From NCBI RefSeq assembly GCF_000621645.1, contig NZ_JHXR01000001.1, positions 210,001 through 242,000 on the forward strand: a stretch of 32,000 nt of DNA. The letters are read 5' to 3'. Origin of the DNA: Vibrio cholerae ATCC 14035. GTDB lineage: Bacteria; Pseudomonadota; Gammaproteobacteria; Enterobacterales; Vibrionaceae. The notes beneath the pieces are model-generated. The model worked only from the letters and a program-made list of their open reading frames with translations, made no database searches and was not told where the DNA came from. Below, in pieces: positions 22,617 to 28,144 of the stretch. A program made the position numbers and the translations under genes. The first letter of the stretch is position 1, and each line of letters begins with the position of its first letter.

Positions 22617-24443
22617 CTAAGCCGAGGTGAGTTCAGCTTGTTCAACAATACGATTGTGCGGCTGCCAAGGTGAGTTGATTGAGTCTGGTTGTAGATGAAT
22701 AGACCAGTATTCGTTATGCATCGAACTCGTATGGCTCGCTTGCAAGGTGGTTAAATTATTCACCAACAGCAAATCGCCAGTTTGTAGCCTGTACTCAAAG
22801 CAAACTCTTGGGTCATGACATAACGTGTTGAGGCGTTGATAGACCCGCGACTGCTCGGTTAATTCGCTGACCCCTTCTAAATGAGTGAGGTAGCCCTGCG
22901 CATGCTGAAAATCTTGCCAACGCAGCACATCTTGGCGTGATGTCGAACAGTAACGGACGAGGGGGTGTAAAGTATTCCCGCCATGTTCAGGTGAAAAGTT
23001 GCTGTAGTGCATGATGGTGTTACGCAGCTGTTCGCGCTCTTGACCGTTGATGGTCAGGACGGCGAGTGCAGCGTCAACCACGGTCCAAGTATTCGAGTCT
23101 GGTGATGCAACGCTGTAAACGGCGTACTCATGGGGGGTGTAATCTTCATATTGATAGCGATGTGGGTGTACGGCCATATAAGCGGGTGGGCAGGAGAGCT
23201 CCCAATGTAAAGGTTGCTCACCAGCACTGCCTTTGAAGGCTTGTACGCTAACCTCATAAGCCCAAGTGACAGCAGAACGGTGATTGAGGTACCAAGTTTG
23301 TAGCTGTTCAGCGTCAGCCAGTGGTGCAAAACCGCGCAGCAAAACCGAGCCAAATTCTTTGACCAGTTGGCTGAGCTCTTTGGGAAGTAGCATATCCAGT
23401 GAAGCGCGATTGGCTGGGCACTCTAAATACAACCCCGATTTTTCATGTTGTAATTCTGCCCGTATTTGGCGCAGCGCATGGGCGTGCACTTCATCGGCTG
23501 CGCTCAATTGCAGGTAACACCAAGGCTTACCATCATGAGTGACAGGCAAGATCACCCCAGAACGTTTTAAGTGATTTTCTTTACTATCAATAATGAATTC
23601 GCCGCGGCTGGCATCAAACAGCAAAGTACTGTGCCAAGGCGTTTTGAATTGGCGTTCATGGAACAGAAACAGCGAGTATTTCTTACCTATCATCGGATGT
23701 TCATGAATGCTTAATCGAATGCAATCGGCAAATTTTTGCTGCAAGAAGTTATCCAGCGCTTTGCCTTGCACCATCATCCCCTTAGCGATATCCGCAAGGC
23801 GACGTCGGCGATCTTTGTATGAGAGAGGAGCAAGAACGAATTTCTGATCCTGATTCATGAATTTTTTCAAACCCAGATAGGTTTGATTCATCTTATTATT
23901 TTTTAATTTAAGTTCAGTGAAATTCTCTGCATAGTCAGGATCACCAAACTTCTCACGTAATCCATCAAAATATTCCGTGTCTTTCAGATCGGAAAATTCA
24001 TCAAAATGTTCGAAATTGACAATTTTTAACGCATCGCTGCAATTCATGTTTGCTACCATTTTACGCAGATTGTCTGAGTAATCATAATGGTGGTCTAAGT
24101 CGACAGAGATATAATCAGAGAATGTATGATAGTCAGAAAAGATATAAAACGTCACACCCGGTTCATAAACGGATTCAATGTCACGGATGCATTGAACAAA
24201 CTTTCTTAAAACGACATATTCACCGAGATCGGGTGTATGGCTAAGTACTTTATCTAAGTTATTTGTTTTACAGGGGAAAGCGGGGAGGAGTAATTTAATT
24301 TTCTCTTGGCTATTTACAAATCTACGAATTTGACTTTTTAAGTGAGCAAGCCCGTTGTAACTGGCATTGCATTGTGCAATTAGTTGATTTAGAAGAATAA
24401 ATGAGATCTTCTCCACATAGGTTTCTTGTTGAGCATCGAGCAT
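22617..24443 (-). CDS. Fusion protein: PvcA/IsnA-type isonitrile synthase (N-terminal ~335 aa) plus divergent TauD/PvcB-like domain (C-terminal ~250 aa)
   Basis: The SD GAGGAAA lies 5-6 nt upstream of the ATG at 24443. The N-terminal domain carries PvcA/DIT1-family hallmarks (LLPAFPCKTNNLDKVL, IRLSIHEHP, TPWHS). The C-terminal domain aligns by eye, block for block, with the stand-alone PvcB-like protein at 27261-28109. Confidence 0.85.
   Translation of the reverse strand: MLDAQQETYVEKISFILLNQLIAQCNASYNGLAHLKSQIRRFVNSQEKIKLLLPAFPCKTNNLDKVLSHTPDLGEYVVLRKFVQCIRDIESVYEPGVTFYIFSDYHTFSDYISVDLDHHYDYSDNLRKMVANMNCSDALKIVNFEHFDEFSDLKDTEYFDGLREKFGDPDYAENFTELKLKNNKMNQTYLGLKKFMNQDQKFVLAPLSYKDRRRRLADIAKGMMVQGKALDNFLQQKFADCIRLSIHEHPMIGKKYSLFLFHERQFKTPWHSTLLFDASRGEFIIDSKENHLKRSGVILPVTHDGKPWCYLQLSAADEVHAHALRQIRAELQHEKSGLYLECPANRASLDMLLPKELSQLVKEFGSVLLRGFAPLADAEQLQTWYLNHRSAVTWAYEVSVQAFKGSAGEQPLHWELSCPPAYMAVHPHRYQYEDYTPHEYAVYSVASPDSNTWTVVDAALAVLTINGQEREQLRNTIMHYSNFSPEHGGNTLHPLVRYCSTSRQDVLRWQDFQHAQGYLTHLEGVSELTEQSRVYQRLNTLCHDPRVCFEYRLQTGDLLLVNNLTTLQASHTSSMHNEYWSIHLQPDSINSPWQPHNRIVEQAELTSA
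22689..23381 (-). other. Divergent TauD/PvcB-like domain of the fusion protein (aa ~355-585)
   Basis: SVLLRGFAPLADAEQLQTWY parallels LVLLRGFETFEHSEQFADY. PLHWELS parallels PMHWDGM. YRLQTGDLLLVNNLTTLQASH parallels HEWQTGDIVITDNFSLLHGR. Confidence 0.65.
23439..24443 (-). other. IsnA/PvcA isonitrile synthase domain of the fusion protein (aa 1 to ~335)
   Basis: See the motifs listed above. The domain boundary is estimated from where similarity to ~330-aa PvcA ends and the linker (AELQHEKSGLYLECPANRASLDMLLPKEL) begins. Confidence 0.7.
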
Positions 24444-24582
24444 AAATTTTCCTCATTCGTTGGATTGGTTGAATGCAATTCAACATATTCAATACGGTCG
24501 TTTTCTTGTTGAGTAATTTGTGCACAAATGAGAATGACATCTTGGCTCATTATTGAACCATTCATCAGTAATTGGATAACGT

Positions 24583-24610
24583 ATCTACTCATCTCCCCGT
24601 ACATCTACTC
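24583..24610 (-). promoter_or_regulatory. Direct repeat of ATCTACTC (GAGTAGAT when read toward the isonitrile synthase gene), 20 bp apart
   Basis: ATCTACTC occurs at 24583-24590 and 24603-24610. It differs at one position from the ATCTAGTC core of the 10-mers at 24754, 28145 and 28181. Confidence 0.4.
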
Positions 24611-27276: not shown

Positions 27277-28109
27277 TGGTACGACTCCAAGCTTGGATTG
27301 TTATAAGGAGGATTACTTAACACTTGCACACGACGAATGTGACGCGGCGTGTGAGAGTTAAAGGCTTCACGGCCATGGAGTAAGGAGAAGTTATCGGTGA
27401 TCACTATGTCACCCGTTTGCCACTCATGAGCGTAGAAGTTACGTGGGTCGTACAGTGCACGGCGTAAACTTTTGTGAAACTCGATCGCTTGCTCAGGAGT
27501 AATGCCAGACAGTGATACATCAGGTGGATTGAGCAGGTCGCCATTTTCTTCAAAATGCGGCTCGTTGTAGCGTATTACTTGATAGTCTCGGTATGGATGC
27601 TGCATCACAATCGGGGAGACGGTTTTACTGTGGTAAAACTCCATTTTACGCTGGTAGTGTCCGGTGACTTGCTGCCAAAGCTCAAGATCTGGCTGAGGGG
27701 CGTGCTGTAAAGCCAGCATGGTATGACTGAAGGTCGTACGCCCGCCATGCCCCGGTAAAGGAGCCTTTACACACTGAAAGATTTGGTATTCAGGGACTTG
27801 TGGGCGATACATGCCATCCCAATGCATCGGCATGTAGCTGCTGTCAAAAATGTGATCGCCAGGATCCTCTTTTTGTACCAGATCTAATACGCGCCCAAAC
27901 GGCCAAACACTCACTTCTCCCCAACGTTCGCAGTAGTCCGCAAACTGCTCCGAATGTTCAAAGGTTTCAAAACCACGCAGTAACACAAGTTGTTCACGCA
28001 AAAAGAGTTCGCGTAACTCATCAATATCTAACTCATTGACATGAATCGGAGCATGTTTCGGTTCTACGATCACTCCAAACGGTTGCAGAGCGGTAATTTT
28101 GTACGGCAT
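27261..28109 (-). CDS. PvcB/IsnB-like Fe(II)/2-oxoglutarate-dependent dioxygenase (TauD/TfdA family)
   Basis: The facial triad is intact: H-W-D in PMHWDG (His codon at 27822-27824) and the distal His in NFSLLHGREAF. An Arg lies 11 residues later (TPRHIRR). I use the ATG at 28109, which has GGAGG 8 nt upstream, rather than the TTG at 28124. Confidence 0.85.
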   Translation of the reverse strand: MPYKITALQPFGVIVEPKHAPIHVNELDIDELRELFLREQLVLLRGFETFEHSEQFADYCERWGEVSVWPFGRVLDLVQKEDPGDHIFDSSYMPMHWDGMYRPQVPEYQIFQCVKAPLPGHGGRTTFSHTMLALQHAPQPDLELWQQVTGHYQRKMEFYHSKTVSPIVMQHPYRDYQVIRYNEPHFEENGDLLNPPDVSLSGITPEQAIEFHKSLRRALYDPRNFYAHEWQTGDIVITDNFSLLHGREAFNSHTPRHIRRVQVLSNPPYNNPSLESYQCPQK

Positions 28110-28144
28110 ATCAATGGCCTCCAAAATGGGCTTAGGTTTTTCCT

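Follow-up and report, generated by a model that had tools for sequence, protein, structure and literature searches.

What is a dioxygenase-like domain doing on the isonitrile synthase of Vibrio cholerae when an intact oxygenase of the same fold is encoded in the same locus? The question is raised by a 32 000-nucleotide stretch of V. cholerae ATCC 14035 (contig NZ_JHXR01000001.1, positions 210 001–242 000; hereafter the window, in whose numbering its coordinates are given). There, an initial annotation had picked out four genes, encoding a fusion of an IsnA/PvcA-type isonitrile synthase to a TauD-like domain, a LysR regulator, a class A flavin monooxygenase and a stand-alone IsnB/PvcB-type oxygenase. 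The locus is V. cholerae VC1944–VC1949, which is already annotated as a pvcA/pvcB-type isonitrile (isocyanide) locus; the cassette itself is not new. Our reading, to which we assign a probability of roughly 70%, is that it encodes a LysR-controlled three-enzyme pathway carried on two transcription units. The synthase domain, assigned by homology to a family with this chemistry, would turn the alpha-amino group of L-tyrosine into an isonitrile. The stand-alone oxygenase would then carry out a decarboxylation-assisted desaturation to 4-(2-isocyanovinyl)phenol, the aglycone of rhabduscin, and the phenol-hydroxylase-like flavoprotein would hydroxylate the ring to give a (probably catechol) vinyl isonitrile, these last two steps in either order. 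The fused TauD-fold domain would be a relic of an ancestral single-gene IsnA–IsnB fusion that lost its metal and 2-oxoglutarate ligands and was retained, presumably and speculatively, to serve the synthase domain as a partner, either structurally or by binding the intermediate. The LysR protein would act on a 56-nt block that precedes both transcription units.

The central evidence lies in the C-terminal half of the 608-aa protein (22617–24443, minus strand; VC1949 ‘pvcA’, called from its open reading frame and Pfam), which comprises residues 331–608 plus the stop codon (22617–23453, minus strand) and is classed as catalytically degenerate from its fold and ligand mapping. Its Pfam TauD match is partial (5.6e-10, residues 483–567; 40 bits against a gathering threshold of 27). 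The fold was examined in an AlphaFold (AF2) model of the whole protein, built from a 23-sequence alignment (predicted local distance difference test, pLDDT, 86.3; predicted template modelling score, pTM, 0.89), in which Foldseek returned PIsnB (7TCL) as the best TauD-family match to the C-terminal domain (template modelling score, TM, 0.82; root mean square deviation 2.7 Å; 19% identity) and PvcB (3EAT) with a TM of 0.73. By hhalign, the domain paired with the stand-alone oxygenase at a probability of 99%. Ligand positions were mapped against the stand-alone enzyme and intact distant fusions with BLAST, hhalign and family alignments. The facial triad H-x-D/E...H is incomplete in this domain, where H413 stands for the His and E415 for the Asp (H413-W-E415), while the distal His is replaced by Q568. 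The arginines that bind 2-oxoglutarate or the substrate carboxylate are missing as well, N577 and S581 occupying the first and second Arg positions of the intact fusions and of PvcB/PIsnB. A pairwise HMMER alignment to PvcB that placed the HxD motif on ‘VHPH’ (H-P-H) was set aside as an artefact, the family alignments and hhalign both giving H413-W-E415. Because the metal and 2-oxoglutarate ligands are lost, the domain is probably not an oxygenase; it appears to be catalytically dead and to contribute no oxidation, the separate neighbouring enzyme apparently doing the work.

The related proteins point the same way. The five ligand positions read H/A/Q/D/R in V. mimicus, G/Q/Q/N/R in V. metschnikovii, H/N/L/R/R in V. 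penaeicida, D/N/Q/N/H in Marinomonas, S/N/Q/S/C in Microbulbifer and W/G/I/G/R in V. proteolyticus. Since the triad positions vary in this way across the clade (G-Q-Q, D-N-Q, S-N-Q, W-G-I), its members would seem, on their residues, to have no conserved metal site. The full set H/D/H/R/R is kept by eight closer fusions outside the clade and by 19 of 21 more distant two-domain representatives, the latter drawn from a search of 1.84 billion proteins. The initial annotation had used the extra TauD-like domain as an argument for a new product; with the distal His and both Arg lost, and with no sign of a conserved metal site in the clade, that argument falls away. Oxygenase ligands are partly lost in two unrelated, more distant IsnA–TauD fusions too: P0055 is without the HxD region, and in P0043 the two Arg are replaced by Ser and Lys. 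Judging from these residues, the fused oxygenase may have degenerated on more than one occasion.

If the fused domain is dead, does an oxygenase always stand beside it? We compared the window with 19 loci from GTDB genomes and with loci recovered by exact-protein look-up, V. cholerae and V. mimicus being among the latter. Where the fused domain is degenerate or lacks its Arg residues, the stand-alone oxygenase and the flavin monooxygenase lie beside the fusion gene in 13 of 13 loci: the window, V. mimicus (L023), V. metschnikovii (L001), V. injensis (L011), V. penaeicida (L002 and L005), V. nigripulchritudo (L003), Marinomonas transparens (L004), ‘V. anguillarum’ DSM 21597 (L006), V. proteolyticus (L007), Microbulbifer epialgicus (L008) and two SRA contigs (L026 and L027). 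The orthologues in these loci are 64–86% identical for the oxygenase and 64–77% for the monooxygenase. Where the fused domain keeps H/D/H/R/R, neither gene occurs within 8–10 kb and the neighbours are unrelated (4 of 4 loci: an Alteromonadaceae metagenome-assembled genome, L009; Algicola, L010; Pseudomonas spelaei, L012; and V. quintilis, L025). By simple counting, a perfect 13/4 split of 17 loci would arise by chance once in 2380, a figure that treats as independent loci that are not phylogenetically so. Intact IsnA–TauD fusions share the domain order of the V. cholerae protein and keep H-x-D...H...R...R while standing alone in their loci, whereas the V. cholerae-type clade lost these residues and has a separate IsnB and a flavoprotein.

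Several of the degenerate loci have features of their own. In L026 the fusion gene (8001–9902, protein P0012) encodes a domain that keeps HWD and the distal His and has both Arg replaced by His, with the gene pair present; it is an apparent evolutionary intermediate. The fusion proteins of L006 and of V. proteolyticus are shorter (580–582 aa) through deletions in the dead domain, and the oxygenase gene of L006 (7647–8488) matches as two overlapping segments that lie in different frames, which points to a frameshift or to a sequencing error. In Microbulbifer epialgicus (10001–14135 of that locus) the order is fusion, oxygenase, monooxygenase, no lysR orthologue was found in the stretch examined, and the fusion protein is truncated to 534 aa with its C-terminal domain further decayed.

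A rival explanation, in which the 608-aa protein is a truly bifunctional IsnA–IsnB and the separate oxygenase and flavoprotein add two further oxidations to give a more oxidised product, has to be weighed against this pattern. In its support, the C-terminal domain scores above the TauD gathering threshold, has an IsnB-like fold, keeps H413 and E415 and is under purifying selection (see below), and the protein was named IsnAB, or ICS-DOX, in the literature (PMC5974471). Yet the distal His has become Gln and both Arg are gone; the triad positions vary freely in the clade (G/Q/Q, D/N/Q, W/G/I), unlike those of fusions outside it, 27 of 30 of which keep H/D/H/R/R; and degeneracy coincides without exception with a canonical stand-alone IsnB, which speaks for functional replacement. 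We consider a bifunctional protein improbable and prefer a degenerate fused domain whose oxidation step has passed to the stand-alone enzyme. ‘IsnAB’ fusions, on this evidence, should not be read as bifunctional from domain annotation alone, and the dead yet conserved domain would be a clean natural example of the replacement of a catalytic domain by a stand-alone paralogue, with an intermediate form in L026.

The apparently dead domain is nonetheless maintained. Between-species synonymous divergence (dS) is saturated, and the ratios of non-synonymous to synonymous divergence (dN/dS) come from three within-species pairs only: 0.065 for two V. penaeicida strains (dS 0.30), 0.12 for V. metschnikovii against V. 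injensis, and 0.106 for the window against a V. cholerae-like contig (L024), the last pair showing seven non-synonymous differences and 18 synonymous ones. The synthase domain (0.05–0.15) gives comparable or only marginally lower values. Over longer distances the C-terminal domain has accumulated two to four times the amino acid change of the N-terminal one. The domain is kept by purifying selection. The simplest explanation is that it is non-catalytic but useful, speculatively as a structural partner of the synthase or as a binder of the intermediate. The C-terminal tail QPxS(I/V)NSPWQPHN (22617–22670, approximately residues 585–598) is nearly invariant in the intact and degenerate gamma-proteobacterial fusions, whose members share the core QPxSxNSPW, and is absent from PvcB and PIsnB. 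That the whole cassette might be a decaying or silent remnant was considered and rejected: all four genes are intact, under purifying selection (dN/dS 0.03–0.26) and present in thousands of assemblies.

The N-terminal half is the synthase domain. Members of the PvcA/IsnA family convert the alpha-amino group of an amino acid into an isonitrile. The domain (approximately residues 1–330; 23454–24443, minus strand), supported by Pfam, phmmer and the modelled fold, matches DIT1_PvcA (PF05141) at 2e-62 over residues 39–290 and positions 1–265 of the 273-position profile, with 211.6 bits against a cut-off of 26.4. Among structures in the PDB, phmmer found PIsnA (9DHM/9DH4, 1e-20) and PvcA (3E59, 1.5e-19), and the synthase half of the AF2 model superimposes on 9DH4, 9DHM and 3E59 with TM values of 0.82–0.86 (target-normalised; E ~1e-20; 22–24% identity). 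The LPAFPxK, SDxH (SD..H), IRLSIH and TPWH blocks align with PvcA/PIsnA residue for residue and are invariant in 23 homologues; the hallmarks LLPAFPCKTNNLDKVL, IRLSIHEHP and TPWHS, on which the PvcA/IsnA call had first been made, are all present in the 608-aa translation. By its Pfam and NCBIfam scores the synthase is a member of the PvcA family and not a PvcA equivalog.

Which product the oxygenase step would give turns on the stand-alone enzyme (VC1944 ‘pvcB’; 27261–28109, minus strand; 282 aa), an IsnB/PvcB-type Fe(II)/2-oxoglutarate oxygenase that matches the full TauD profile (2.7e-48, 165.6 bits). Its nearest PDB relatives are PvcB (3EAT, 7.9e-84) and PIsnB (7TCL, 1.3e-77), to both of which it is about 50% identical, and the next match is far behind (1.8e-10). 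Given this closeness to PvcB and PIsnB against an identity of only ~20% to the fused domain, it is, as far as sequence comparison goes, not a recent copy of that domain. The intact HxD...H...R that had been noted in it consists of H96-x-D98, H245, R256 and R260, with H96, D98, H245 and R256/R260 aligning with H101, D103, H250 and R265 of PIsnB (PMC9467999). Enzymes that form vinyl isonitriles by decarboxylation carry Lys or Arg at PIsnB position 107 and Asn or His at position 188, while PvcB-type, isocyanoacrylate-forming enzymes have Leu and Cys there (PMC9467999). The window enzyme has R102 and N182, IsnB-type markers like those of PIsnB (K107, N188) and unlike those of PvcB (L, C). The Arg is kept in 12 of 12 orthologues (HWDGMY-R) and the Asn (RY-N-EP) in all except that of V. 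proteolyticus, which has Ala (RYAEP). From the ~50% identity to PvcB/PIsnB together with these markers, we infer the second step of the pathway; the enzyme is predicted to be of the decarboxylating, vinyl-isonitrile-forming type.

These markers bear directly on a second rival, in which PvcB-like desaturation without decarboxylation leads to a paerucumarin-like isocyano-dihydroxycoumarin, the flavoprotein replacing PvcC/PvcD and so allowing lactonisation. Among PDB entries the stand-alone enzyme does match PvcB best, the cassette encodes a ring hydroxylase as pvcABCD does, and other gamma-proteobacteria, for example Serratia, produce isocyano-dihydroxycoumarin (PMC5109203). Such a product would, on the other hand, need both additional oxygens of the 6,7-dihydroxycoumarin to come from one monooxygenase, and both discriminating positions are IsnB-like and not L/C, so that decarboxylation is predicted and not an isocyanoacrylate or coumarin. 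A coumarin strikes us as an improbable outcome, and a vinyl isonitrile is the product we favour.

The third enzyme would then act on the ring. The class A flavin adenine dinucleotide (FAD)-dependent aromatic-ring monooxygenase (25813–27276, minus strand; 487 aa) matches FAD_binding_3 (4.5e-66, 223.9 bits) with a C-terminal Rng_hyd_C domain in Pfam, and scores 972 bits against a cut-off of 530 for the NCBIfam equivalog PRK07190, a family named only ‘FAD-binding protein’. It carries GxGxxG at residues 12–17 (IIGAGPVG), followed by GADG and GDACH. Its nearest PDB relatives are VibO (3e-55), phenol 2-monooxygenase (1e-50), rifampin monooxygenase and 3-hydroxybenzoate hydroxylase, and addition of a ring hydroxyl is predicted because these nearest solved relatives all act on phenols or related aromatic substrates. 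It resembles phenol 2-monooxygenase, VibO and 3-hydroxybenzoate hydroxylase in its FAD_binding_3 core, in the GxGxxG, GADG and GDxxH motifs and in having a thioredoxin-like domain at the C terminus; unlike the fungal phenol hydroxylases, it is much shorter (487 vs. ~650 aa) and belongs to an NCBIfam equivalog of its own. The ring-hydroxylated vinyl isonitrile proposed in the initial annotation is thus in keeping with both enzymes, as a prediction.

The flavoprotein also helps to judge a third rival, that the pathway starts from tryptophan or some other aromatic amino acid and leads to an indolyl vinyl isonitrile derivative, like the IsnA/IsnB system first found in environmental DNA. The low identity of the synthase domain to the Tyr-specific PvcA and PIsnA, its failure at the PvcA equivalog cut-off and the NCBI family name ‘L-tyrosine/L-tryptophan isonitrile synthase family protein’ leave room for this. 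Against it, the stand-alone oxygenase is very close to two enzymes specific for Tyr isonitrile (8e-84, 1e-77), the W, M and Y of HWDGMY, which belong to the pocket of PIsnB, are conserved (PMC9467999), and the flavoprotein falls in the phenol-hydroxylase group. We regard a tryptophan-type substrate as very improbable; the most likely product on present comparisons is a ring-hydroxylated, tyrosine-derived vinyl isonitrile.

Several points weigh against our reading of the locus and its product. The product is deduced from the enzymes, and isonitrile production from V. cholerae genes was reportedly described by Crawford et al. in 2012. The synthase misses the cut-off of the NCBIfam PvcA equivalog NF045653 by a wide margin (99.2 vs. 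600 bits), which leaves the Tyr substrate unsecured by that model, and the stand-alone oxygenase scores slightly higher against PvcB than against PIsnB. The association of degeneracy with the gene pair in the 13 and four loci is uncorrected for shared ancestry, and H413 and the carboxylate E415, retained in V. cholerae, make residual metal binding possible in this species. The selectivity markers are correlative, single K-to-L and N-to-C mutations having left the product of PIsnB-Ah unswitched (PMC9467999). The literature name ‘IsnAB’, finally, implies a bifunctional synthase–dioxygenase (PMC5974471).

How does the cassette compare with known systems? It is a variant of the IsnA/IsnB–PvcA/PvcB pathway type. 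Reference structures were 3E59 (PvcA) and 3EAT/4YLM (PvcB) from Pseudomonas aeruginosa and, for the rhabduscin type, 7TCL (PIsnB) and 9DH4/9DHM (PIsnA). Like the rhabduscin IsnA/IsnB of Xenorhabdus and Photorhabdus, it combines an IsnA-type synthase with an IsnB-type Fe/2-oxoglutarate oxygenase bearing the Lys/Arg and Asn markers, and a tyrosine-derived substrate is likely in both. Unlike in the rhabduscin pathway, the synthase here carries a dead IsnB-like domain, the gene set also includes a class A flavin monooxygenase and a LysR regulator, and no glycosyltransferase is encoded in the cassette or in the other window reading frames scanned. Like pvcABCD of P. aeruginosa, which makes paerucumarin (2-isocyano-6,7-dihydroxycoumarin), it brings together a PvcA-family synthase, a PvcB-family oxygenase and a ring hydroxylase; unlike pvcABCD, whose PvcC/PvcD are of the HpaB/HpaC type, its hydroxylase is a single-component class A flavoprotein. 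Pfam scans of the cassette and of 14 other window reading frames (those at 12262–18696 were not scanned) detected neither an HpaB/HpaC-type hydroxylase nor a glycosyltransferase, in line with the absence of PvcC/PvcD and of the rhabduscin glycosyltransferase claimed earlier for the cassette. The absence of a glycosyltransferase from the window is not conclusive, because in Photorhabdus this enzyme is encoded elsewhere than the isn genes (PMC6386379).

The regulator (VC1947; 24802–25692, plus strand) is divergent from the fusion gene and matches LysR_substrate (4.3e-36) and HTH_1 (1.2e-20) in Pfam. A 56-nt block, GTAACT.T.GGTTCT..TTT..TTATCTAGTCA-N16-AAATAAT, is common to both upstream regions. 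Copy 1 (GTAACTTTGGGTTCT...TTATCTAGTCA-N16-AAATAAT; 24730–24785, minus strand) points towards the fusion gene and ends 17 nt from the ATG of lysR on the opposite strand; copy 2 (28157–28212, minus strand), with the inverted repeat TTATCTAGTC-N26-GACTAGATAA, lies ~50–100 nt upstream of the ATG of the pvcB-like gene. With up to one mismatch allowed, the window holds three occurrences of the 11-mer TTATCTAGTCA, against 0.33 expected, all of them in the two upstream regions. The block stands beside the lysR start in nine loci including that of Marinomonas, with many positions invariant although the proteins are only 48–75% identical to those of the window, and a ATCTAGTCA core is placed 41 nt away from the start codon of lysR in V. 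metschnikovii, V. penaeicida (L002), V. nigripulchritudo and ‘V. anguillarum’ DSM 21597 (L001, L002, L003 and L006). A lysR orthologue is adjacent in 12 of 13 related loci. In the usual layout of the degenerate loci, lysR is divergent from the oxygenase, monooxygenase and fusion genes, which follow one another in the same direction. In V. cholerae, V. mimicus and V. metschnikovii lysR has shifted to a place between the monooxygenase and fusion genes, and these three carry a second copy of the block, which in V. mimicus and V. metschnikovii is found ~70 nt upstream of the oxygenase gene. The shared block supports co-regulation of both putative transcription units, and the LysR protein most likely acts on it as a putative operator.

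A consensus promoter and terminator scan of 22400–28500 found fewer sites than in shuffled sequence (7 vs. 10.0 and 5 vs. 5.5); the regulatory and terminator calls given here rest on inverted repeats and cross-species conservation. A riboswitch or attenuator in the leader of 285 nt that runs from the block to the start codon of the fusion gene was considered and rejected, with an RNA-structure z-score of -0.89 and no Rfam match at E<=1 in 22400–28500.

The limits of the cassette are marked by two hairpins. A bidirectional terminator-like structure, AAAGCCGAGGC-4 nt-GCCTCGGCTTT, with a perfect 11-bp stem (22555–22580, no strand assigned) lies between the convergent torZ-like and fusion genes, and the folD terminator (28299–28331, minus strand), also with a perfect 11-bp stem and with a T-rich tract after it on the minus strand, forms the other boundary. 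The four genes lie between them at the positions first proposed, and Pfam profile searches (DIT1_PvcA, TauD, FAD_binding_3, LysR) bear out the family given to each protein. A third hairpin (25761–25787, no strand assigned; 11-bp arms, 91% complementary) separates the convergent lysR and monooxygenase genes. The oxygenase gene and the start of the monooxygenase gene share a 16-nt overlap. The oxygenase likely starts at ATG 28109 and not at the alternative TTG 28124, because a GGAGG box lies 9 nt upstream and the orthologues are 277–282 aa long; the TTG itself falls within that GGAGG ribosome-binding site. For lysR, ATG 24802 is the likely start, with an alternative ATG upstream at 24763. The three enzymes and the LysR regulator form one functional unit, since synteny is kept in 13 loci of at least three genera, the genes overlap or nearly abut, and the regulatory block is common to both transcription units; in this the view of the cassette as self-contained holds.

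The locus is well represented in V. cholerae and has been noticed before. An exact-protein look-up found the identical 608-aa sequence in 6856 blocks of the assembly collection. Comparative genomics of strain N16961 lists a ‘PvcB protein’, a ‘LysR family transcriptional regulator’ and a ‘pvcA protein’ of 864, 930 and 1827 nt, lengths and order that equal those of the window, as do the distant neighbours (MCP, transcriptional regulator, benzoate transporter) (PMC2807590). VC1949 (pvcA) adjoins VC1950 (biotin sulfoxide reductase) and VC1951 (yecK) (PMC5816637), which correspond to the genes flanking the fusion gene in the window. A 2018 paper cites the protein as ‘V. cholerae IsnAB’, a two-domain isocyanide synthase–dioxygenase (ICS-DOX) (PMC5974471), homologues of PvcA/PvcB in V. 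cholerae are mentioned elsewhere (PMC3639982; PMC6386379), and recent genome papers report an ‘isocyanide’ biosynthetic gene cluster in this species (PMC13040912). Several ‘pvcA’ matches in V. cholerae papers were discarded as plasmid names (pVCA...). The suggestion that the cassette is non-canonical and perhaps uncharacterised thus holds in part, as its own caveat had anticipated: the locus was already annotated and named (PMC2807590, PMC5974471, PMC13040912), and no paper defining the product of the V. cholerae cassette was found in the searchable literature. Nor did we find stated there the degeneracy of the fused domain, its co-occurrence with the oxygenase and flavoprotein pair, or the operator block. 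In infant mice, colonisation by a VC1947 mutant is mildly impaired (PMC3448163), and VC1945 is co-expressed with virulence genes (PMC7343309).

We entertain only tentatively, and think rather unlikely as a whole, a broader scenario in which an ancestral one-gene IsnA–IsnB pathway took on a flavin phenol hydroxylase along with a canonical stand-alone IsnB, after which the fused half became a pseudo-oxygenase, kept by selection, that serves for instance as a scaffold or intermediate carrier. In V. cholerae and about a dozen related marine gamma-proteobacteria the pathway would then make an undescribed catechol vinyl isonitrile under the control of VC1947 and contribute modestly to colonisation of the gut. 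V. cholerae, a major pathogen, has few secondary-metabolite loci, and the isonitrile locus is present in essentially all genomes of the species. Rhabduscin inhibits insect phenoloxidase, its aglycone inhibits human complement, and isocyano-dihydroxycoumarin binds iron. A catechol vinyl isonitrile would be a candidate metal-binding or metalloenzyme-inhibiting molecule and, if made by V. cholerae, could matter for metal handling or host interaction; a role in copper handling or phenoloxidase inhibition is pure conjecture. The basic picture of isonitrile biosynthesis is unchanged and specialists in the field will not be surprised, and the locus offers a tidy, testable case in an important pathogen.

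The history of the cassette within the genus can be read in part from V. mimicus. Nucleotide identity between the window and the V. mimicus locus is 71–75% in the cassette (22651–28229), against 94.6% in folD (28408–29586) and 90.5% in the chitinase/nupC region (14480–18707). The edges of the divergence are sharp and lie at the two terminators, and dS is 0.20–0.25 in folD and chitinase and saturated in all cassette genes. Given this contrast with the flanks, the cassette alleles are much older than the split between V. cholerae and V. mimicus, which suggests replacement by recombination with a distant (xenologous) donor or a long-lived polymorphism.

The surroundings of the cassette, whose neighbours by Pfam are a TorY/TorZ-like pair and FolD, show some further variation. 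The region downstream of the fusion gene differs between close relatives: the torY/torZ-like pair (18951–22527) is missing from the corresponding site in V. mimicus, and the gene for a GH18 chitinase (846 aa, 16156–18696) is missing in the V. cholerae-like contig L024. GC content falls to 36–39% over 23500–25000, a stretch that runs from the 5' half of the fusion gene across the divergent intergenic region into the beginning of lysR, against ~47–50% elsewhere in the window. A tRNA-Arg gene (anticodon TCT) lies at 29469–29545, between folD and an OpgC-like acyltransferase gene.

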